From the NCBI GenBank assembly GCA_030605835.1, contig JAUWHO010000001.1, positions 29,966 through 93,965 of the forward strand: a stretch of DNA of 64,000 bases, read 5' to 3'. The notes beneath the pieces were generated by a model. It searched no databases. It was not told the origin of the DNA and saw nothing but the letters and a program-made list of their open reading frames with translations. This stretch comes from Candidatus Zixiibacteriota bacterium. Lineage in GTDB: Bacteria > Zixibacteria > MSB-5A5 > DG-27. Shown here one piece after another: positions 18,231-27,132 of this stretch. A program made the position numbers and the translations under genes. How positions within the stretch are numbered: position 1 is the first letter of the stretch; every line of letters begins with the position of its first letter.

Positions 18231-20381
18231 ATGAATATGAGACTGTTTTTGAGCTTTGTCATTGTTTCCCTTTTTCTCCTTCCTGCTTCTTCTTTGGCGG
18301 TGGAGGTTTCCGGTCCGGTATGGGGTCGCTGGACGGTTGAGAACTCCCCTTACGATGTCGTTGGAGAGGTGAGAGTACCTCCCGAATCGACCCTCATAAT
18401 CGACCCCGGAGTGGTGGTCAACTTCAAGGGGCACTACAAATTTATCGTGGATAGTGCCGCGGTGCTGTTAGCAGTCGGGAGCGAGACCGATTCTATCTAC
18501 TTCACTCCAGAGGACACCACCGTTGGATGGCACGGCATCCGCTTCATCCATGCCGACGGAGCCTCACACCTCTCTCATTGTCAAATCAGATACGGAAAAG
18601 CCACGGGGACCTATCCCGACTACCACGGTGGCGGTGTCTTCTGTTACTATTCTGACCTCAAAATTAACAACTGTAGCATCGTCAGAAATCATGCGATGAG
18701 AAACGGTTTTGGCGGGGGAATCTACTGCTACCACTCGAGCTGCGAGATAACTGAAAGCGACATCAGCTTCAACAAGGCCACCCCGATCGGAGGCGGCATT
18801 TACGCCGTCTATTCAAATCTCACCATCAGATCCAGCAGTCTCGTCAGAAACATGGCGTGGGGGGCCGGCGGCGGCATCTACTGCGGCTCCTCCGATTTGG
18901 TCTCAAGCTCCAACAGCTTCAGCGACAATTGGTCCTTCTTCGGAGGCGGGATCTATGCCTTCAGCTCTCAGGTCAACATAACCAGCGACAGCTTTGAAGC
19001 TAACTCCATTAGCCACCTGGGGGGCGGGATTTTCGTTGGCGACTGCGATGGAGTAATAAATGATAACGTCATCGCCGGTAACGATGCTGAGGATGGTGGC
19101 GGCATCTTTTGCGGGTATGGTTCGACGGTTATCATAGCCAATAACCTCATCAGCAATAACACTACCTACCACGCCGACGATGATGGCGGCGGCATCTTCT
19201 GCCACAATTCAAGCCCCGAGATACTTCATAACCTCATTATCGGGAACTTCGCCCAGCGTTACGGTGGTGGTATCTATCTCTGGGGCTCAAGTCCCTTGAT
19301 AGAAGGCAACACCATAAGCATGAACACCGCCCAATACGGTGGGGGCATATGTTGTCACGATAGCTCCTTTGTAACGGTCACAAACAACATACTCTGGGAA
19401 GATTCTGCCGAGGTGGGAATGGAACTCTGCTTGTTATATGATGCGGAAGCAGTCCCCCCTGTGCTTACAGTTAGTTATAGTGACGTTGAAGGGGGCGAAG
19501 GAGATGTTTACGTCGCCCCTGAAGCCGAACTTGTCTGGGGATACGGCAACCTCGATCTAGACCCACTCTTTATCGATTCCCACGGAGACGATTTTCACCT
19601 GCTGCCCACGTCTCCGTGTATCGACGTGGGAGATCCATATATGGAGGACTATGACCACTCCCGTTCGGACATGGGAGCTTTGCCATATTTCCACAAGATC
19701 GCCTTGCGCCTGCGCCCGGATGACCCTTTCCCTCTCAGCTTCCCCCGGGGTTATGACGCCTACGGGATGAGAACCATCGCCAATAACACTGCCTCTCCCA
19801 AGCCGGTCAAGCTTTCGAGCGTCATTACCAACTCCGCCGGTGACACCCTGAGAAATCTGTATTCGTGGGAGGGAAATCTGCCCAGACAACACTTGAGGGA
19901 GGATTACGGCTATCTCCACGTTCCAAGCTATGTGCCGCCCGGTTTCTACAACTACGTGATGGCGGCGGAGAATGCTTCAACCGGTGAGATCTGGCACACC
20001 TCGGTGACGCCGTTTGAGATTTCTGAAGGTGGAGCGATTGCAACCTCTGGTGAAGGTTGGTTCTCACAATTCGGGGAAAAGTTCTCTCGGGGCGAGGATG
20101 TGAGCTTTATCCCTTCAGAGACGAGCCTCAATACTCGTTGTTATCCCAACCCCTTCAATACCTCCACCACTATCAGCTACCAGCTTCAAACTGCAGGCCA
20201 GGTCACTTTGGAAGTCTACAACCTTCTTGGACAGAGGGTGACCACATTAGTGAACGAAAAGCAGCAGGCTGGAGATAAATTTGTAATCTGGGATGCTTCC
20301 CAAGTTTCCTCCGGGCTTTACTTCTACAAGTTGACCGCCGGGGATTTCACGCAGACCAAGAGGATGATGCTGGTGAAGTGA
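18231..20381 (+). CDS. Secreted parallel beta-helix repeat protein with a T9SS type-A CTD.
   Basis: The N-terminus is homologous to the 3130-4986 gene (VWGRWTVENSPYDVVGEVRVP...HYKFIVD). It has GGGI rungs and ends YPNPFN...LYFYKLTAGDFTQTKRMMLVK. Confidence 0.8.
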   Translation: MNMRLFLSFVIVSLFLLPASSLAVEVSGPVWGRWTVENSPYDVVGEVRVPPESTLIIDPGVVVNFKGHYKFIVDSAAVLLAVGSETDSIYFTPEDTTVGWHGIRFIHADGASHLSHCQIRYGKATGTYPDYHGGGVFCYYSDLKINNCSIVRNHAMRNGFGGGIYCYHSSCEITESDISFNKATPIGGGIYAVYSNLTIRSSSLVRNMAWGAGGGIYCGSSDLVSSSNSFSDNWSFFGGGIYAFSSQVNITSDSFEANSISHLGGGIFVGDCDGVINDNVIAGNDAEDGGGIFCGYGSTVIIANNLISNNTTYHADDDGGGIFCHNSSPEILHNLIIGNFAQRYGGGIYLWGSSPLIEGNTISMNTAQYGGGICCHDSSFVTVTNNILWEDSAEVGMELCLLYDAEAVPPVLTVSYSDVEGGEGDVYVAPEAELVWGYGNLDLDPLFIDSHGDDFHLLPTSPCIDVGDPYMEDYDHSRSDMGALPYFHKIALRLRPDDPFPLSFPRGYDAYGMRTIANNTASPKPVKLSSVITNSAGDTLRNLYSWEGNLPRQHLREDYGYLHVPSYVPPGFYNYVMAAENASTGEIWHTSVTPFEISEGGAIATSGEGWFSQFGEKFSRGEDVSFIPSETSLNTRCYPNPFNTSTTISYQLQTAGQVTLEVYNLLGQRVTTLVNEKQQAGDKFVIWDASQVSSGLYFYKLTAGDFTQTKRMMLVK

Positions 20382-20666
20382 GGTCCCTGATCCTCTTTTG
20401 ACGGGGGCTGTGTAAAGCATTGTGTGGTTTTCTGCCCAGGGGTGGCTAGAGAAGAAATGTATATGCCGGCAGGGACAGACAGTCCTGGATAAGCTTGACA
20501 GGATCAAGCGCAAAACCATGAGGCTGAGGCGCGCTCAGAATCGCCCAACATGTTTTTCAGCCGTTGCGGGTTTTTGGGGCATTTAAGCTACGATTCAGAA
20601 ATAAACTTGCGAGTTTACCAAACTCTGAATTCACGCAACAGCCCCGAAATCGGCTGCAAAAAATCG

Positions 20667-21512
20667 TTATGTATTTTCAATTATGCCACTATTGACGCAT
20701 ATTTGTGTGAACAGTGCTCCAACATTAAATAGGACTGTATTTCCTGTATCAATTCCCAGTTTATTTACTTTTATCTTAACTTTAATTTCAGCTTTTTTCC
20801 GTGCATCAAAAATTGCAAATATACCTTGCGCACCCTTACTTCCCGTAATATTCACTCTTGCTGGATTGTTTTCAAATTCTTTTGAGCAGGTTTTAAGAAC
20901 ATAACTTTTTATATCCTGCTCATCTGTTAACTCTAAATATTCTTTAGTCACGAACTCATTACCATAAAATTCCATTTTTGTTAGGATAGAAAAGTCTTCT
21001 TCTCTGTCAAAGGAAATAACGTCAATGCTCATAAAGAATCTATTATCAAGGGTTCCTTGTTCTATCAGGTAATCTATATAATAATCTAAACCATCAGTTA
21101 TTCTGCCTGAGTTATCAATATTGTATTTCTTTTTAAGAACCGCCAGAAGTTTCTTTAGCCCAGTATCAAAGTTACCCCGAAAATCAGCGTAGAGTTTGTC
21201 TCTTAGTAGAAGCGGTATTTTGCAATCATCAATAATAACTGGAAGTATTGTTATTTTCTTATCTTCAATTTCTTTTAATAGCCCTGCATTAATTTCCCTC
21301 TTAACCCACTCGGATTTTATTGAGTTATTTGAAAATACAACACAAATGTAGCTTGCTCCTTCAAGACCATCCTGAATCTTATTGATAAATGAATCACCAA
21401 CACTGATTTGCCACTCATCTTTCCATACCTTGACATTATGAGAAATGAGAGACATAGCTAGTTTATCAACAAATTCGCTATCTTGATGGTTATAACTTAT
21501 AAATACTGACAT
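20667..21512 (-). CDS. TIR-domain protein with an uncharacterized C-terminal domain of about 145 aa (TIR-C).
   Basis: FISYNHQDSEFV (beta-A) and SEWVKREI (SxW...E catalytic-Glu signature). The C-terminal half matches nothing I recognise. AT-rich codon usage. Confidence 0.75.
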   Translation of the reverse strand: MSVFISYNHQDSEFVDKLAMSLISHNVKVWKDEWQISVGDSFINKIQDGLEGASYICVVFSNNSIKSEWVKREINAGLLKEIEDKKITILPVIIDDCKIPLLLRDKLYADFRGNFDTGLKKLLAVLKKKYNIDNSGRITDGLDYYIDYLIEQGTLDNRFFMSIDVISFDREEDFSILTKMEFYGNEFVTKEYLELTDEQDIKSYVLKTCSKEFENNPARVNITGSKGAQGIFAIFDARKKAEIKVKIKVNKLGIDTGNTVLFNVGALFTQICVNSGIIENT

Positions 21513-21565
21513 AGATTTTCACTATTATCTCATCACATAACGATAAGGATAACCCCCTGGTATGG

Positions 21566-21600
21566 AGCGCAGCGGAATACCAGTCGGGTTCATCTTTTTG
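21566..21600 (-). terminator. Hairpin between TIR-B and TIR-C. Possible intrinsic terminator or attenuator.
   Basis: Minus strand: CTGGTAT-tccgctgcgctcc-ATACCAG, then GGGGTTATCCTTATCGTTAT. A GC-rich hairpin in an otherwise AT-rich spacer. Confidence 0.3.
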
Positions 21601-21617
21601 TTATGCTAAATTAAGTC

Positions 21618-22001
21618 TCAGTCCCGAATAGCTTTTGCTATCTCCTTAGCTGCAGAAACTGGAGAGCTTTCACGCAAATATTGATATTTTACTAAGGATA
21701 AAGGTAGTCGCTCATGTCCAACTTCATCAATAACAACTGGAATAATCCTTTTTTTGTCAGCCACAGCAGCCCCTAACTCAAAATATATCCATGGACTTTG
21801 AAGGCTATTTGAACTTAACAAAACCACCAAAGTGCTACTCGCCCGAAGTGCCTCTTGAGTTTGTTGCCTAATATCTTCCCCTAAGGATATTTCATGATAA
21901 TCAAACCAAACTTCAATTCCTTCCTGCTCAAGGGTTTCAGCGAATGCTTGCACCCAACGTCTGTCTTTGAAGGAGTAGGATAAGAATATTTTATTCTTCA
22001 T
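21618..22001 (-). CDS. TIR-only protein (TIR-B).
   Basis: FLSYSFKDRRWV and SPWIYFEL (SxWxxxEL). 127 aa. Its start overlaps the upstream TIR-A stop. Confidence 0.75.
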   Translation of the reverse strand: MKNKIFLSYSFKDRRWVQAFAETLEQEGIEVWFDYHEISLGEDIRQQTQEALRASSTLVVLLSSNSLQSPWIYFELGAAVADKKRIIPVVIDEVGHERLPLSLVKYQYLRESSPVSAAKEIAKAIRD

Positions 22002-22435
22002 TTCTCTACCCCCATCTTAGAATCTTTGTTGACACGCTCTTCAAGCTGACCGAAATATTGGTCAATATCATTTAAACTAATGATGTCCCTTTTCTTTAGG
22101 AATACAGGTGCGTTGGGACGAGATTGAAATTCTGAAGGGGATAAACCGTGCAAAACCACAATTATTGGGATTCTCCTTATCCACGCTGCTCCTATTTCTG
22201 CCCATACGTATGGCCTCTCAAATGACCATGGTGTGAATAACACTAATAATTCATCTGCCTTATCCAAAAACTCTAGAATATCTTCCTCGAATTCAGCACC
22301 AATATCGACATCTGCCTCATCGAGAAATGGAGTAGCATTGTGAGATGTTATTTCTCTTGCTATCTGCCTTGCCACCCAAGTATCTTGCCCCGAATGGCTA
22401 ACAAACACCAATTTTTCATTAGTTTGGTCGGTCAT
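21998..22435 (-). CDS. TIR-only protein (TIR-A).
   Basis: FVSHSGQDTWVA and TPWSFERPYVWAEIG. 145 aa. First gene of the AT-rich island operon. Confidence 0.7.
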   Translation of the reverse strand: MTDQTNEKLVFVSHSGQDTWVARQIAREITSHNATPFLDEADVDIGAEFEEDILEFLDKADELLVLFTPWSFERPYVWAEIGAAWIRRIPIIVVLHGLSPSEFQSRPNAPVFLKKRDIISLNDIDQYFGQLEERVNKDSKMGVEK

Positions 22436-22463
22436 TCCATTAAGACCTTTTCTGTTTTATTGG

Positions 22464-22469
22464 CATAAC
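22464..22469 (-). promoter_or_regulatory. Candidate -10 box (TATAAT) for the TIR operon.
   Basis: Minus strand ...CACTGTATAATCATTG..., about 30 nt upstream of the TIR-A ATG. Confidence 0.3.
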
Positions 22470-22606
22470 AATGATTATACAGTGTGCATAAACCGGCAAA
22501 GATAGACTTTTTCCTTCCGTATAAACCTTCTGAGCATTTCATAGTTCATGGGCCTAAGTCCTTGAATATCCATGTTATATCTCCTCTCATCATCTCAACG
22601 GGGTTT

Positions 22607-22629
22607 GTCTTATACAGTCTGTATAAGAC
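22607..22629. repeat. Perfect 11-bp inverted repeat with a 1-nt spacer, at the island edge.
   Basis: GTCTTATACAG-t-CTGTATAAGAC, followed by a GC-rich tract (ccggggctgcgcacccccttgcggccgcgg) inside AT-rich DNA. Confidence 0.5.
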
Positions 22630-22864
22630 GGCTCAAAGCCCATCTCCGGGGCTGCGCACCCCCTTGCGGCCGCGGTTCAGATGCTTCGATTCACTACAGA
22701 CAACTGATGAAGAGCCCGAAGGCCTTCGATCCACTCTCCCAACACTTATGACGCCACCGCTCTCTTGCACGAATTTCTCCGGCTTTTCAATGTATTTCGC
22801 ATATAATATATCTCTGACAAAGAGTCAAGAAAAACTTATCTTTTTCTGCCATGCTACGCCAACC

Positions 22865-22999
22865 CTTGAGTGCGGTCCGGAAAATGCCTGTGGATATCTT
22901 AATGGGTGGGATGCTTCTGATGTCTCCTCTGGTCTTTACTTCTACAAATTGACCGCTGGTGACTTGTCTGAGACTAAAAGGATGATTCTATTGAAATAG
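22865..22999 (+). pseudogene. Orphan T9SS CTD 3' remnant with low-GC codons (...NACGYLNGWDASDVSSGLYFYKLTAGDLSETKRMILLK*).
   Basis: Only about 45 codons of CTD homology at the 3' end of an otherwise composite ORF. Third codon positions are AT-biased, unlike the native CTDs. Confidence 0.5.
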
Positions 23000-23259
23000 T
23001 GTCACCAGCTAGCCTCGCCGAAGACACCAGGGATTAGATTAGCGTAGGTCAAGTATCAGACCGAAGCTAACTTCCATCAAGCGGCAGGAATTTTCTTGAC
23101 AACAGGGGGCTTTTTTGTATCTTTGGAAATGAAAGGGCTTGATGACGCCGCCCCATTCTAACTGGTCAGAATGAACTCTACCGCGGGGCGATCATCTGTT
23201 TGACAGTCCGAAGCGTGTCTAAAACGTCCGAAGTCTTACCATTCCAAAAAGGAGGAGCT

Positions 23260-24957
23260 ATGAAGAGAAGCTATTTTCTTTCGATGCTTCTGATTGTCTT
23301 TCTTTTTACTTCTTCTCTATCCTGGGGCGAATTCAAGTATGCGGTGCTGGTAAATAACTCCACCTATCAGATCCCGGAGTGGGCCCTTGTTGCTGATACT
23401 CTGAAGTCGCGCTACGACGGTGAGATTTTCACCTGGGAAAGCTCGGTGTGGGACGTGCGCTCGGAATTGTCAGCTTACAAGCCAACCCACATCGCCTTCG
23501 TCTGCGAGCCCCTGACCGCCAGCGCCGGTTTCGTCCAGATAGTGTGGCCCTTTACCCGCTGCCTCGACGATGATCCCTACGGTGATGCCATCTGGGGGAT
23601 AATCACCGGTTACGACGCTGCAGACGCTCTTCGCCTGGCCAACTGTGAGCCTTTTGTGGTTAAGAACATGCTTGGAGGCACGATGAGCTGTGATGTGAAC
23701 TATTACCCCCAGGGAATAGCCACCAGCGAGGCAACTTACAATCGCATCCGCTTCAAGTATCTGGACGGCACCATCATCGACACCACCGATGAGAATCTCT
23801 GCCCCACCGACCGCACCGAGTTCCTTATGGACATGATAAACGCCGACACTATCGACATCTTTATGACCAGCGGACACGGCAACCACGACCGCTGGCAACT
23901 GCACTATCCCTCTCCCGACCTGGAGGGGTTTTTCATGTCCAGCGCTGGTCAACTCTACGGAGATCCTCGTATCGGTCCGAACATCAACGCCAATTCCGTC
24001 AATCCCAAAATCTACTTAGCCTTAGGCAACTGTTATGTCGGCAAACTTCAGAACCTGAATTCGATGGCTCCCGCCTGGATCCATACCGGCGGAGCCTCTC
24101 TCATGACCGGCTATGTGGAGTGGGAGGGCACCTATAGCCACCAGCACGGTGGCACCAAAGCTTTCTTCGCCCGCCAGGGGCTTTACACTTGGCCGGAGGC
24201 ATTCTTTTTAGCCAACCAGGCCCTTTACTTTGACCTCGACAACCACACTCCTGGCACTAACCCCCCAGATTTGAACTGGTCGGCGCTCTACGGAGACCCA
24301 GCTTTGGATGCCCGTCTGGACACCGTGTCTGGGGTTATTCCCGGCTCGATGTATGAGGAGCAGATTGAGATCGTGCCCGGAGACGACAAAGACACTGTCA
24401 CGGTGCGGATTGTCATGAACCGGGAGGACTCGCCGGGCTACAACGGGAAGTGGGGGAATCGCCATCCCATTATTCTTTTCCCCTTCCGGGCTGAAAATCC
24501 GGTCATCATCAAATACGACCCGGAATGTTATACCGCCGAGGTTACCGATGATTTCTTCTTGATGTGTATCTGGTGGCTGGGTGACGCTCCCCTTCCAGCG
24601 GGAGCGACCCGGGAGTTCGTCTTCACCTGCGACCACATGGTCACCTCCGTGGAGGAACCTGCCTCACCACCTCTGCCGAGCAAGATAGTCCTTTACCAGA
24701 ACCGTCCCAATCCCTTCAACGCCCAGACTCAGATCAGATATCAACTCTGCTCCCCGACCGCGGTCAACTTGGCAATCTACAACCTCCAGGGGGAACGGGT
24801 CTGCACTCTGTTCGAAGGGTATCAATATCCGGGAACATACAACCTCATCTGGGACGGTCGCAATCAGAGGGGAGGCGAGGTGGTCTCGGGAATCTACTTC
24901 TACCGCTTGACCTCCGGCGACATCTCCGAGAGCCGACCGCTCTTATTGTTGAAATAA
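23260..24957 (+). CDS. T9SS-CTD cargo protein with a C25/clan-CD-like cysteine peptidase core (gingipain-like).
   Basis: Signal peptide after an AGGAGG site. A His-Gly motif FMTSGHGNHD and a downstream Ala/Gly-Cys motif LALGNCYVG resemble the clan CD His/Cys dyad. C-terminal RPNPFN...IYFYRLTSGDISESRPLLLLK. Confidence 0.6.
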   Translation: MKRSYFLSMLLIVFLFTSSLSWGEFKYAVLVNNSTYQIPEWALVADTLKSRYDGEIFTWESSVWDVRSELSAYKPTHIAFVCEPLTASAGFVQIVWPFTRCLDDDPYGDAIWGIITGYDAADALRLANCEPFVVKNMLGGTMSCDVNYYPQGIATSEATYNRIRFKYLDGTIIDTTDENLCPTDRTEFLMDMINADTIDIFMTSGHGNHDRWQLHYPSPDLEGFFMSSAGQLYGDPRIGPNINANSVNPKIYLALGNCYVGKLQNLNSMAPAWIHTGGASLMTGYVEWEGTYSHQHGGTKAFFARQGLYTWPEAFFLANQALYFDLDNHTPGTNPPDLNWSALYGDPALDARLDTVSGVIPGSMYEEQIEIVPGDDKDTVTVRIVMNREDSPGYNGKWGNRHPIILFPFRAENPVIIKYDPECYTAEVTDDFFLMCIWWLGDAPLPAGATREFVFTCDHMVTSVEEPASPPLPSKIVLYQNRPNPFNAQTQIRYQLCSPTAVNLAIYNLQGERVCTLFEGYQYPGTYNLIWDGRNQRGGEVVSGIYFYRLTSGDISESRPLLLLK

Positions 24958-25044
24958 GTTTTTTGTACGGCCCGGAGAGATTGAGTTAGTTCTCGGTGAG
25001 AGAACCGAGAGCTGAACCTTGCATCAGATTTGAAGGGTGTTGTA

Positions 25045-27132
25045 ATGAAATCCATACTCAAAGCATTCTTTAGGTTCGGAGCTCTGCTTTCAATCTGCTG
25101 TTTTCTATCTCCGATTACGCTCCTGGCACAGTGGCAACTCGTAGATTCCACAAGCTTCCAGGTGAGATTAGCTGCAGATAGCAACTGCTTTATTACATTC
25201 AATCCCGGAGATGATTCTTTAGAGGTCACCCTCCCCGAAAGAGGGCTTTCGGAGACGGCGCTTTTGGCTTTGGAGAAAGCTCCCGATTGGTTGAAGCCAG
25301 CTCTGGGGGACAATCTCGCCAGGCTGGCAACCGGGCTGCAGGACACCTACGCGGCGATAATACTGAATTCCACCGACCCGTTTGTTGATGAACTCTGTTT
25401 CGAGATTGCCCAGCTAGCCCCGCGGACCCTGCGGGATATGGAGAGATGGGAGGCTTTGGAGGTCTTGACGGAAAATGTGGCCTCCCTTTACAGCATTGAT
25501 AACTTCCTGGAGTATGCTGACATCCTTGACTACGGCAACTCCTCCCAGGGGGGTGACTATTATTCGACCGTCAGTTACCGAGTGGAAGAGGAGGGGGATA
25601 CTCTGGAGTTCGAGCTCCCCAAAGAGATCTATTACTGGTATCTGGTTCATCCCAAAATCCACAAGGAGCTCCCGGCATACATCGACCCCAATACCGGAAA
25701 CCCCTCCTGGCCTCCTTACGGGTTTTTCTGGAGAGACTATTTGATGAATTACGCCGACGGAGGCTATCCCTTACTGAAAGATATGCTTGAGGGAGTGGAG
25801 ACTCTCTGGAACAACATCCCCGACAATATTGAAAACGGCGCCGTTGGAGTTTTAACCGCCTGGGTCGATTCGGTGATGGACTTTATATCCTACCCTCATC
25901 ACGACCAGCCGGTGAGGATATACCACCTCCATATAGGGACTTGCAGCGTTCACTCTTACCTGACCTCGGCGGCAGCGAGGGCGGCCTTGATTCCCGCCAC
26001 CGTGACGGTGATGTACAGCAACGACCATAAGGTCAACGAGTTCTGGGAACGGCGCTGGATCAGCTGGGAACCGGTGGGGATACACATTGACAATCCCCGC
26101 TGCTACGACCCCGGTTGGGGCTGGGATATTGCCGCCGTCTTCAACTGGAAAGGGAACGGCTTCATCTGGGATGTCACCGAGAGATACACCGAGGTCTGCA
26201 CCTTGAAAGTCACCATCACTGACGCTGGTGGCAGCCCCGTCGATGGTGCCCGAATAAAACTCCATAGTGCACCCTGTGTGGCCTGGGGAGCCACCGCGGG
26301 ATGGACAATCGAGACCGGGGAAAAACAGTTCCTCTTGGGGGACAGTCGCGATTTCACCGGTCGAGTGGACAGCGAACTCGGAGGCTACCCTCCGAGCGGG
26401 ATGGAACAGATAATCACCGGTAGCCAGCCGGGAGCGGTTTATACCTGGGAGGTCACCCTCCCGGGGGATATGCCCCAGCTTGAGATTCTGCCCGACACCC
26501 TTCCCGAAAACCCCAGGGATGAATTCAAAATCGAGCTGGAGTTTGAGCTCCCTTCAGAGATCCTTTACGGTGACAACCTCGACGACAACGACAGCTTCTC
26601 GGAGTTCGTCTCGCCGGGGCAAATAGACCTCTTCATCTGCGATCAGGCCAACTTCGATGACTATATCGCCGGTAGTGAATTCAAAGCCTTTGAAATCAAT
26701 CGTGGGGTCCCGCAGGGTACGCTCGAGTTTGTCTTTCCAACCGATGATGTCTGGTATCTGGTTTTCTCCAATGAGAAATCAACAGTGCTCACGCAGCAGT
26801 TAGAGATGGTCGCCTACCTCTACCAGAAATCGACCGGAGTTGCCGAGAGAGAGGAATCCGAAATACCCCAAAGCTTCAAGCTGGTGGGGAACTATCCTAA
26901 TCCCTTCAATAGCCAGACTACCATCAGCTATCAGTTGCCGGTGAACAGCGAGGTGAAATTGGAGCTTTACAACTTACTGGGACAGAAGATAACCACATTG
27001 GTTGACGAAAGACAGGAAGCCGGATACAGGTCAGTCATCTGGGAAGCTACCGCAGTTTCTTCTGGTATCTATTTCTGCAAGTTGACCACGGAAGAATTCG
27101 TTCAGACAAAGAGGATGTTGCTGATTCAATAA
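25045..27132 (+). CDS. T9SS-CTD cargo protein with a transglutaminase-like cysteine protease core.
   Basis: GTCSVHSYLTSAAARAALIPATVTV...DHKVNEFWE matches the Cys...His...Asp transglutaminase-like pattern (G.C......A..R.LGIPAR...H.W.E). C-terminal YPNPFN...IYFCKLTTEEFVQTKRMLLIQ. Confidence 0.65.
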   Translation: MKSILKAFFRFGALLSICCFLSPITLLAQWQLVDSTSFQVRLAADSNCFITFNPGDDSLEVTLPERGLSETALLALEKAPDWLKPALGDNLARLATGLQDTYAAIILNSTDPFVDELCFEIAQLAPRTLRDMERWEALEVLTENVASLYSIDNFLEYADILDYGNSSQGGDYYSTVSYRVEEEGDTLEFELPKEIYYWYLVHPKIHKELPAYIDPNTGNPSWPPYGFFWRDYLMNYADGGYPLLKDMLEGVETLWNNIPDNIENGAVGVLTAWVDSVMDFISYPHHDQPVRIYHLHIGTCSVHSYLTSAAARAALIPATVTVMYSNDHKVNEFWERRWISWEPVGIHIDNPRCYDPGWGWDIAAVFNWKGNGFIWDVTERYTEVCTLKVTITDAGGSPVDGARIKLHSAPCVAWGATAGWTIETGEKQFLLGDSRDFTGRVDSELGGYPPSGMEQIITGSQPGAVYTWEVTLPGDMPQLEILPDTLPENPRDEFKIELEFELPSEILYGDNLDDNDSFSEFVSPGQIDLFICDQANFDDYIAGSEFKAFEINRGVPQGTLEFVFPTDDVWYLVFSNEKSTVLTQQLEMVAYLYQKSTGVAEREESEIPQSFKLVGNYPNPFNSQTTISYQLPVNSEVKLELYNLLGQKITTLVDERQEAGYRSVIWEATAVSSGIYFCKLTTEEFVQTKRMLLIQ

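Follow-up and report, generated by a model that had tools for sequence, protein, structure and literature searches.

A TIR protein of a Candidatus Zixiibacteriota bacterium carrying a previously undescribed C-terminal accessory domain

Described TIR immune systems and the TIR-C gene

TIR enzymes are an immune tool common to bacteria, plants and animals, and the systems built around them differ in how they are switched on. The enzymes need self-association of their TIR domains for activity, and the known switch domains, which include STING, SAVED/CARF and SLOG domains as well as sensors of phage proteins, have each been informative on how a signal is recognised. Here, we analysed a stretch of 64,000 nucleotides from a Candidatus Zixiibacteriota bacterium (GenBank assembly GCA_030605835.1, contig JAUWHO010000001.1, positions 29,966 to 93,965; referred to as the window), which codes for three TIR proteins. 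The third of them, TIR-C, is a putative TIR immune protein with a previously undescribed accessory domain, which makes up the C-terminal half of the chain and is called the tail in the following.

Several described systems resemble TIR-C in their general layout. TIR-STING, TIR-SAVED, Cat1 and the TIR effectors of Pycsar likewise begin with a TIR domain, behind which lies a compact domain comparable to the tail in size. Pycsar effectors are expected to carry a sensor domain binding cyclic nucleoside monophosphates (cNMPs). Unlike in all of these systems, no signal-making enzyme is conserved beside the genes of the tail family. SpbK (TIR), Evangelion and Vulcan (DUF4062/NIR) and DSR2 (SIR2) share with TIR-C the combination of a domain consuming nicotinamide adenine dinucleotide (NAD+) and a family-specific region in a single gene, and these genes are similarly mobile and scattered over unrelated contexts; in contrast, their accessory domains are unrelated to the tail of TIR-C. 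SpbK senses a phage structural protein, and Vulcan a small phage protein. Metis and Vesta also represent single sensor-effector proteins: MisA of Metis senses m6dAMP via a PUA-like domain, and VstA of Vesta consists of NIR and an uncharacterised C-terminal domain. DUF4062 itself was recently reported to be an immune domain depleting NAD+ and was renamed NIR (bioRxiv 10.64898/2026.09.04.749371); the Evangelion systems, which consist of a single gene, are built around it (bioRxiv 10.64898/2026.09.04.749371, 10.64898/2026.06.25.731849).

Finally, in the Thoeris systems (types I-XI) a ThsB protein, a TIR sensor or synthase of a cADPR-type signal produced upon infection, is encoded beside an effector responding to the signal (SIR2-SLOG, Macro-TM, caspase-like, SLATT and others). 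ThsB is comparable to TIR-C in containing a TIR domain with the catalytic glutamate and, within the same polypeptide, an additional region outside the TIR domain, and its representative ThsB1 senses phage structural proteins (PMC11312562). Thoeris types VII and IV are laid out as TIR plus SLATT and TIR plus caspase-like protease, respectively, and one TIR cluster can be paired with different effectors (bioRxiv 10.64898/2025.12.03.692087). Similar layouts with SLATT, caspase/CHAT, phospholipase or SLOG neighbours, which correspond to these two types and to further predicted ones, occur in several relatives carrying the tail (see below), whereas the window contains no effector gene and the tail matches none of the ThsB models of PADLOC.

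The TIR-C gene and its parts are located in the window as follows:

20667..21512, minus strand: TIR-C gene, 281 amino acids (aa), ATG start, stop codon at 20667-20669; TIR domain followed by the C-terminal domain
21144..21506, minus strand: TIR domain, residues 3-123; Pfam TIR_2 with E 4.9e-31 over the full model
21294..21296, minus strand: codon of Glu73 in the W-x-x-x-E motif (SEWVKRE); sole invariant column of a 35-sequence full-length alignment
20688..21110, minus strand: C-terminal domain, residues 135-275; predicted β4-α-β4-α layout in the AlphaFold2 (AF2) model, 55 homologous clusters, ratio of nonsynonymous to synonymous substitution rates (dN/dS) 0.24
20979..21026, minus strand: signature hairpin IDVISFDREEDFSILT, residues 163-178; best-conserved stretch of the C-terminal domain

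The NCBI gene call for TIR-C (P0001, 262 aa) begins only at Met20 and omits the first TIR strand (window 21456-21512, minus strand). Because the homologues all begin with MSVFISY, which represents this first strand, we consider the 281-aa start as correct; a 281-aa copy in ENA (P0068) likewise supports the ATG at 21512. The protein thereby agrees with the initial annotation of this DNA, which had described a 281-aa protein with a complete N-terminal TIR domain, and the peptide stretches quoted there are all present in the translation. Both the profile match and the conserved glutamate place the N-terminal half in the TIR superfamily, with weaker Pfam matches to ThsB_TIR (E 8.9e-9, above the cut-off) and TIR (E 6.7e-8), and AbTir (7uwg/8g83, E ~1e-11) as the closest solved structures. 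Trp69 of the motif is conserved in at least 90% of the 35 aligned sequences, and Glu73 is the residue which we take to be the catalytic glutamate according to established knowledge of TIR NADases.

The best PADLOC matches of TIR-C (PDC-S66, Aga_TIR, SAVED_TIR and ThsB) cover the TIR part only, and TIR-C could not be assigned to any of the described two-domain families. Cat1 (263 aa) aligns with residues 3-115 only (E 3e-6), and no CARF fold appeared among the matches of the tail, which separates TIR-C from the Cat1-type TIR-CARF proteins of type III CRISPR systems. The SAVED_TIR profile ends at residue 89 (residues 2-89 covered), no SAVED (double CARF-like) or CARF structure was matched, and the PADLOC search of the window yielded no CD-NTase, the gene of which would be expected in the operon of a TIR-SAVED protein of CBASS. 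Equally, the fold matches listed for the tail included neither the C-terminal STING fold that binds cyclic di-GMP in TIR-STING nor a cNMP-binding domain as expected of Pycsar effectors, and no cyclase gene adjoins TIR-C in the window. Its N-terminal domain being TIR_2 and not DUF4062, it does not belong to Evangelion either, in which a DUF4062 (NIR) core is combined with an AUX region.

The C-terminal domain of TIR-C

The flagged part of TIR-C (window 20667-21100, residues ~128-281) matched no profile in PADLOC, NCBIfam (E<=10) or PHROGs (E<=10), and a Pfam search at E<=1 only yielded a noise match to PilY1 (E 0.038). The initial annotation had been unable to assign this region to a family and had estimated its size as ~145 aa, which fits the structured part at residues ~135-275. 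Although a word-indexed search retrieved near-identical copies only, an exhaustive phmmer search of 1.84 billion representative sequences detected the tail in at least 55 clusters (50% identity) at E<=1e-3, 23 of which were already found at E<=1e-10; the size of the family is counted from this single-sequence search. Nearly all of the homologues are proteins of 270-300 aa that were matched at residues ~130-275. Their sources are contigs of environmental metagenomes and metagenome-assembled genomes (MAGs) assigned to Bacteroidales, Anaerolineales and Chloroflexota. A search of 72,556 plasmids and of IMG/VR resulted in no match for the tail.

Comparison with a metagenome copy of 88% identity (locus L002) resulted in dN/dS values of 0.11 for the TIR domain, 0.24 for the tail and 0.185 for the whole of TIR-C, and because of the values for the two parts, both halves of the protein are regarded as being under purifying selection. 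The substitutions between the window and the L002 copy bunch at residues 193-215, but we discounted this hot spot as evidence because two other subgroups did not reproduce the clustering and contained scattered substitutions instead.

AlphaFold2 modelled the tail alone, using the 35-sequence alignment, with a mean predicted local distance difference test (pLDDT) value of 92.9 and a predicted template modelling score (pTM) of 0.87. In the numbering of the tail alone, the first half of the model consists of strands 8-12, 17-28, 31-42 and 47-57 and helix 74-88, and the second half of strands 92-96, 101-108, 115-126 and 132-136 and helix 138-147, corresponding to a β4-α-β4-α layout in which an all-antiparallel meander sheet is combined with two helices. 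When the two β4-α halves were aligned by hhalign, no similarity of sequence was detected (probability 0.9%), and an internal duplication is not apparent from this comparison. Because of the 55 clusters, the dN/dS of 0.24, the pLDDT of 92.9 and the pTM of 0.87, we regard the tail of TIR-C as a genuine, conserved and independently folding domain of a new family. Two trivial explanations, which the initial annotation had named as outcomes that would speak against a sensor domain, do not apply. A non-coding tail created by a frameshift is ruled out by the homologues, the dN/dS value and the pLDDT, and a plain helix-bundle oligomerisation tail by the β-rich model. The model of full-length TIR-C reached a pLDDT of 92.7 with a pTM of only 0.69 and is therefore interpreted as two well-folded domains of uncertain mutual orientation.

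To the structures and sequences compared, the tail shows no convincing relation. A profile of the 35-member family found no match among PDB sequences (best E 1.6), a Foldseek search of the model against 350,542 PDB chains returned nothing below E 0.07 or above a TM score of 0.30, and only matches with low TM scores were obtained from BFVD. STING, SAVED, CARF, SLOG, Macro and cyclic-nucleotide-binding structures, most of which had been proposed as candidate folds for this region, were all missing from the fold matches listed; SLOG and Macro domains are Rossmann-like α/β/α sandwiches with a parallel sheet, whereas the tail is predicted to be antiparallel throughout. The proposal of one of these sensor folds is therefore not supported. 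As analogues, the fold searches returned levivirus coat-protein dimers and TIP41-like folds, which share with the tail an antiparallel β-sheet with helices, and 120-126 of the 154 tail residues superpose on covalent levivirus coat dimers. However, the levivirus coat is a dimer, whereas the tail is a single chain with neither an internal repeat nor a Foldseek match. The likeness is a structural analogy and gives no grounds for assuming homology. According to the model, the tail is without a solved relative among the PDB chains compared, and this comparison, which covered PDB and BFVD, falls short of proof of a strictly new fold.

The sequence conservation of the tail is concentrated in a few stretches. 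The family consensus of the signature hairpin (residues 164-177) reads D-x-V-S-x-D-x-E-E-x-Y-S-V-L, and further conserved stretches are G-R at 136-137, R-x-x-R-L-G at 248-253 and F-N-x-G-A-L-F-x-Q-I at 262-271. Column frequencies in the alignment were recorded for G253 (97%), S167 (89%), D169 (80%), V166 and L177 (77% each) and D164 (74%). R137, D147, D164, S167, D169, E172, R248 and R251, each conserved at 60-89%, constitute a polar cluster which, as judged from the sequences, exceeds what a bare packing surface would need.

These features bear on the possibility that the tail is a plain assembly scaffold, whose β-sheet platform would only dimerise or polymerise the protein, with sensing taking place elsewhere or being absent altogether. 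Such a role would be in line with the general dependence of TIR activity on self-association, with purifying selection lacking a clear hot spot and with a sheet resembling that of the coat dimers. However, it leaves the conserved polar residues unexplained, and because of the toxicity to be expected of an NADase in a permanently assembled state, a control step would still be needed. We therefore rate a pure scaffold as distinctly improbable.

Proposed role of the domain and genomic neighbourhoods of its relatives

To compare the surroundings of the family members, we collected 43 loci from about 17 distinct lineages (labelled L, with individual proteins labelled P) and clustered their 668 neighbouring open reading frames (ORFs) all-against-all. 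The related loci were retrieved with two peptide patterns, one of them the signature hairpin, from eight closer sequences. Most of the metagenome contigs are short, and a solitary position of the tail gene is firmly established only for the longer sequences, namely the window, L001 (84 kb), L007 (203 kb) and L008 (36 kb). The features that we refer to are the following:

Window 20665..21537, minus strand: block of 93% nucleotide identity with L002 and L003 (blastn), comprising the ORF and 25 nt upstream
L002 6985-7764, plus strand (also in L003 and L010): 259-aa PycC-like class III cyclase; PADLOC PycC E 1.2e-9, Pfam Guanylate_cyc E 0.022
L015: Guanylate_cyc+TPR protein upstream of the tail gene
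L016 485-2370, plus strand: tight row of a ThsB-like TIR gene (Pfam ThsB_TIR E 7e-22, PADLOC PDC-M50B), a gene for an unassigned 160-aa protein and the tail gene
L028 352-4003, plus strand: tail gene, patatin gene (PADLOC phospholipase effector E 7e-100) and gene for a 531-aa TIR+SLOG protein (LD_cluster2), with gaps of 148 nt and 3 nt
L017: SLATT_2 gene as a close same-strand neighbour
L022: Peptidase_C14 caspase gene as a close same-strand neighbour
L007: CHAT+TPR-S gene as a close same-strand neighbour
L054: pP_pnuc_1 nuclease gene as a close same-strand neighbour
L036: type II methylase gene as a close same-strand neighbour

The block of high identity extends to L012 over 20826-21537, and L011 is 92% identical over 20666-21034 (blastn). 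Between the window and L002, the flanks are unrelated, and identity stops at the stop codon. Because the nucleotide identity is confined to the ORF and 25 nt of upstream sequence, we conclude that the TIR-C gene moves as a single-gene cassette. Correspondingly, no neighbour family recurred beside the tail genes among the 668 ORFs of the ~17 lineages, apart from near-identical contigs. In L001 (among lipopolysaccharide genes), L008, L009 and L034/35, the surroundings consist of housekeeping or unannotated genes. Thoeris-type effector genes adjoin the tail gene in four or five lineages, while roughly half of the lineages are without an effector gene; they are present in L017, L022, L007 and L028, and absent from the window, L001, L008, L009 and L034/35. 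In L004/5 and L050, there is no recognised signalling partner, and genes for a calcineurin-like phosphoesterase and a Peptidase_S8 are located nearby. A 78-aa ORF downstream of the tail gene in both L050 and L054 was considered as a common partner and rejected, because the two ORFs are unrelated.

Throughout the family, the tail was only found behind heads of the NADase type, which are TIR domains in nearly all members and a DUF4062 domain in P0023 (318 aa, from a metagenome; Pfam E 3.8e-21). If a domain is an input module, one would expect it to be kept while the effector attached to it is exchanged, as is the case here. Aligned with the AUX protein of Evangelion or with DUF4062 proteins of Staphylococcus plasmids, P0023 matched over DUF4062 only, and the tail is not common to them. 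As a separate observation, the swap connects proteins with the tail to NIR, Evangelion and Vesta, a group that was described only recently.

Our preferred interpretation is that the tail serves as the input module, either sensing or regulatory, of a self-contained and horizontally mobile TIR immune protein, which we consider about evenly poised between right and wrong. It is supported because of the exclusive association with NADase heads, the invariant glutamate, the solitary mobility of the gene, the immune neighbourhoods of some relatives, the conserved polar cluster and the position of the window copy in an islet of low GC content within core chromosomal DNA. From the analogy with SpbK, ThsB1, Vulcan and MisA, we infer that the tail senses something and would control the TIR domain in response to an infection cue, and the nature of the cue, the control of oligomerisation and the TIR product are likewise inferred. 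In the resting state, the tail would keep the TIR domains apart. Once the tail encounters a component of the phage or a metabolite arising from the infection, it would drive the self-association of the TIR domains, and the active site with E73 would start to consume NAD+. Where the gene stands alone, as in the window, the output would be the depletion of NAD+, whereas beside SLATT, caspase/CHAT, patatin or SLOG genes it could be a signal derived from ADP-ribose which addresses those effectors; we consider these two outputs as roughly equally likely, given the effector-type profiles of the TIR domain and its closest solved relative AbTir on the one hand and the four or five lineages with Thoeris-type effectors beside the gene on the other.

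Four observations weigh against an input module of this kind. The tail shows no clear sign of the diversifying selection that is expected of a sensor for phage proteins; at a pTM of 0.69, the full-length model gives no confident support for a tail packed against the TIR domain in an autoinhibitory manner; the TIR profiles rank TIR-C nearest to effector-type TIRs associated with pAgo, SAVED or retrons; and cyclase genes are neighbours of the tail gene in two lineages (L002 and L015).

The cyclase genes point to a second-messenger receptor instead, and the effector-type profiles fit this equally well. In such a receptor, the tail would bind a small nucleotide produced by a partner enzyme, namely a PycC-like cyclase or a further TIR protein, and the TIR domain would deplete NAD+ in response, as in TIR-STING, TIR-SAVED, Cat1 or the TIR effectors of Pycsar. 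One case in favour is L002, where the cyclase, with the motifs FIDLAGFS and MIGDEIMF, is encoded 138 nt downstream of P0060 (88% identical to TIR-C) on the same strand and no candidate effector other than P0060 was found nearby. Further points in favour are the upstream Guanylate_cyc+TPR protein of L015, the ThsB-like TIR gene preceding the tail gene in one tight operon in L016, the effector-type character of the TIR domain and the equal size and order of Cat1, a TIR domain followed by a domain of ~150 aa. However, the tail is unlike any known messenger-binding fold, the gene is exchanged without its neighbours and has no conserved generator, and in several lineages (L001, L008 and L009 among them) no generator is present within 5-6 kb. 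The PycC-like cyclase is restricted to the lineage of L002/L003/L010. Moreover, several of the neighbours listed above (SLATT, caspase, patatin, nuclease) are effectors themselves and would need a generator rather than a second effector, and the window contains neither a cyclase nor SLOG nor another partner type. Taken together, a messenger-receiving tail seems rather unlikely to us.

Three of the loci deserve a remark of their own. The cyclase of L002 and P0060 could form a pair similar to Pycsar, in which the sensor domain would be new, the operon-like row of L028 resembles a Thoeris-like system with two effectors, and L016 is the second case, besides the window, of a tail gene located behind another TIR gene.

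Another version of sensing assumes that the tail recognises a metabolite derived from the phage or the host, as does MisA of Metis and as proposed for VstA of Vesta. The stand-alone distribution of the genes fits to this assumption, as do these precedents, the occurrence of the tail on a DUF4062/NIR head in P0023 and the conserved polar cluster. On the other hand, the PUA-like sensor of MisA is a different fold, and no phosphatase or other "cleaner" gene is conserved beside the family; we regard a metabolite receptor as improbable. If the options of a nucleotide made by a PycC-like cyclase and of an infection metabolite as the ligand are taken as one, the tail might represent a new fold of small-molecule immune receptors gating an NADase, in addition to STING, SAVED/CARF, SLOG and cNMP-binding domains, a proposal that we consider tentative and rather unlikely. 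If true, the family would constitute a class of its own among the TIR/NIR effectors of uncultured bacteria, one that is gated by a ligand.

The trigger of the tail, once found, would extend the catalogue of TIR switches by a further mode of activation and by a new fold. This prospect is moderated by the existence of many TIR fusions with unknown domains, by the small size of the tail family and by the fact that current models are not contradicted.

The three-TIR islet of the window

TIR-C is encoded within an islet of ~2.5 kb that differs from its surroundings in composition, with a GC content of 36-44% (bins of 20001-23000) versus ~51-55% in the adjoining bins. The islet is embedded in the core chromosome, among genes for ribosomal proteins, SecY, MreB and a tRNA synthetase. 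When the islet was searched for promoters, terminators and genes of RNAs, nothing above chance emerged, and no tRNA gene was found in the window. Besides TIR-C, the following features lie within the islet or bracket it:

20289..20377, plus strand: 89-nt direct repeat, left copy (79% identity between the copies); forms the 3' end of an intact gene, whose product has a sorting tail of the type IX secretion system (T9SS)
21618..22435, minus strand: TIR-A/TIR-B cassette; TIR-A at 21998-22435 (145 aa) and TIR-B at 21618-22001 (127 aa), both Pfam TIR_2
22907..22995, plus strand: right copy of the 89-nt direct repeat; relic of a T9SS tail to which no proper gene body belongs

The genes for TIR-A and TIR-B overlap by 4 nt (ATGA) and are both located upstream of TIR-C. 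The search for TIR-A homologues resulted in 1314 matches at E<=1e-5, the best 120 of which are 70-87% identical and come from MAGs of Thermoanaerobaculia, Planctomycetota and others. In six of six other loci (L043-L049), TIR-A is followed by an overlapping TIR-B homologue, which is far less conserved than TIR-A (44-54% identity in the three loci aligned by BLASTP). These pairs are located among housekeeping genes, in one case between clpP and clpX, and no effector is conserved beside them. As a two-TIR cassette, the pair is thus remarkable for how widely it is distributed and how well it is conserved. A tail was not found beside the pair in three of the loci by tblastn, and in the other three no further TIR gene was called. 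Because TIR-A/TIR-B pairs occur elsewhere without the tail and the TIR-C gene moves alone, we consider the islet as a combination of two independent cassettes.

This affects the form of the messenger hypothesis that applies to the window itself, in which the signal would be produced by TIR-A and TIR-B. The initial annotation had named the tail as the obvious receptor candidate for a signal of the two upstream TIR proteins, and this link receives no comparative support: the tail was found beside none of the six other TIR-A/TIR-B pairs, more than 1300 TIR-A homologues stand against ~55 tail clusters, and the TIR-C gene moves on its own. Its broader suggestion was a ligand-sensing or effector domain, and a function in sensing or regulation is still the most plausible interpretation, whereas the known sensor folds and the connection to the upstream TIR proteins are not supported. 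Its statement that the window is devoid of a cyclase was confirmed, since PADLOC detected neither PycC nor a CD-NTase among 40 window ORFs of >=180 aa, and phmmer searches of the six-frame translated window with two cyclases of relatives and with SLATT, SLOG, patatin, caspase and CHAT queries gave no match. On the CRISPR side, the same 40 ORFs only yielded weak matches of the Cas3 helicase type (E ~1e-6 to 1e-7). The 285-nt spacer behind TIR-C (20382-20666) was examined as a possible cyclase remnant, which we rejected because homology to L002 does not extend past the stop codon and phmmer found no match.

The three-TIR islet is bracketed by the 89-nt direct repeat, whose coding content is the final part of a C-terminal T9SS sorting domain. 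On the right, the copy lies in a gene remnant of lower-GC codons, the ORF at 22484-22999, whose translation ends with ...WDASDVSSGLYFYKLTAGDLSETKRMILLK. This arrangement suggests that the islet came with a piece of a donor T9SS gene and was integrated by recombination in the conserved tail sequence. The T9SS is characteristic of the Bacteroidota-related FCB group, which would point to a host of this kind, and its sorting tail (Por_Secre_tail) is present in five proteins of the window, three of which are encoded around the islet at 18231-20381, 23200-24957 and 25030-27132 on the plus strand.

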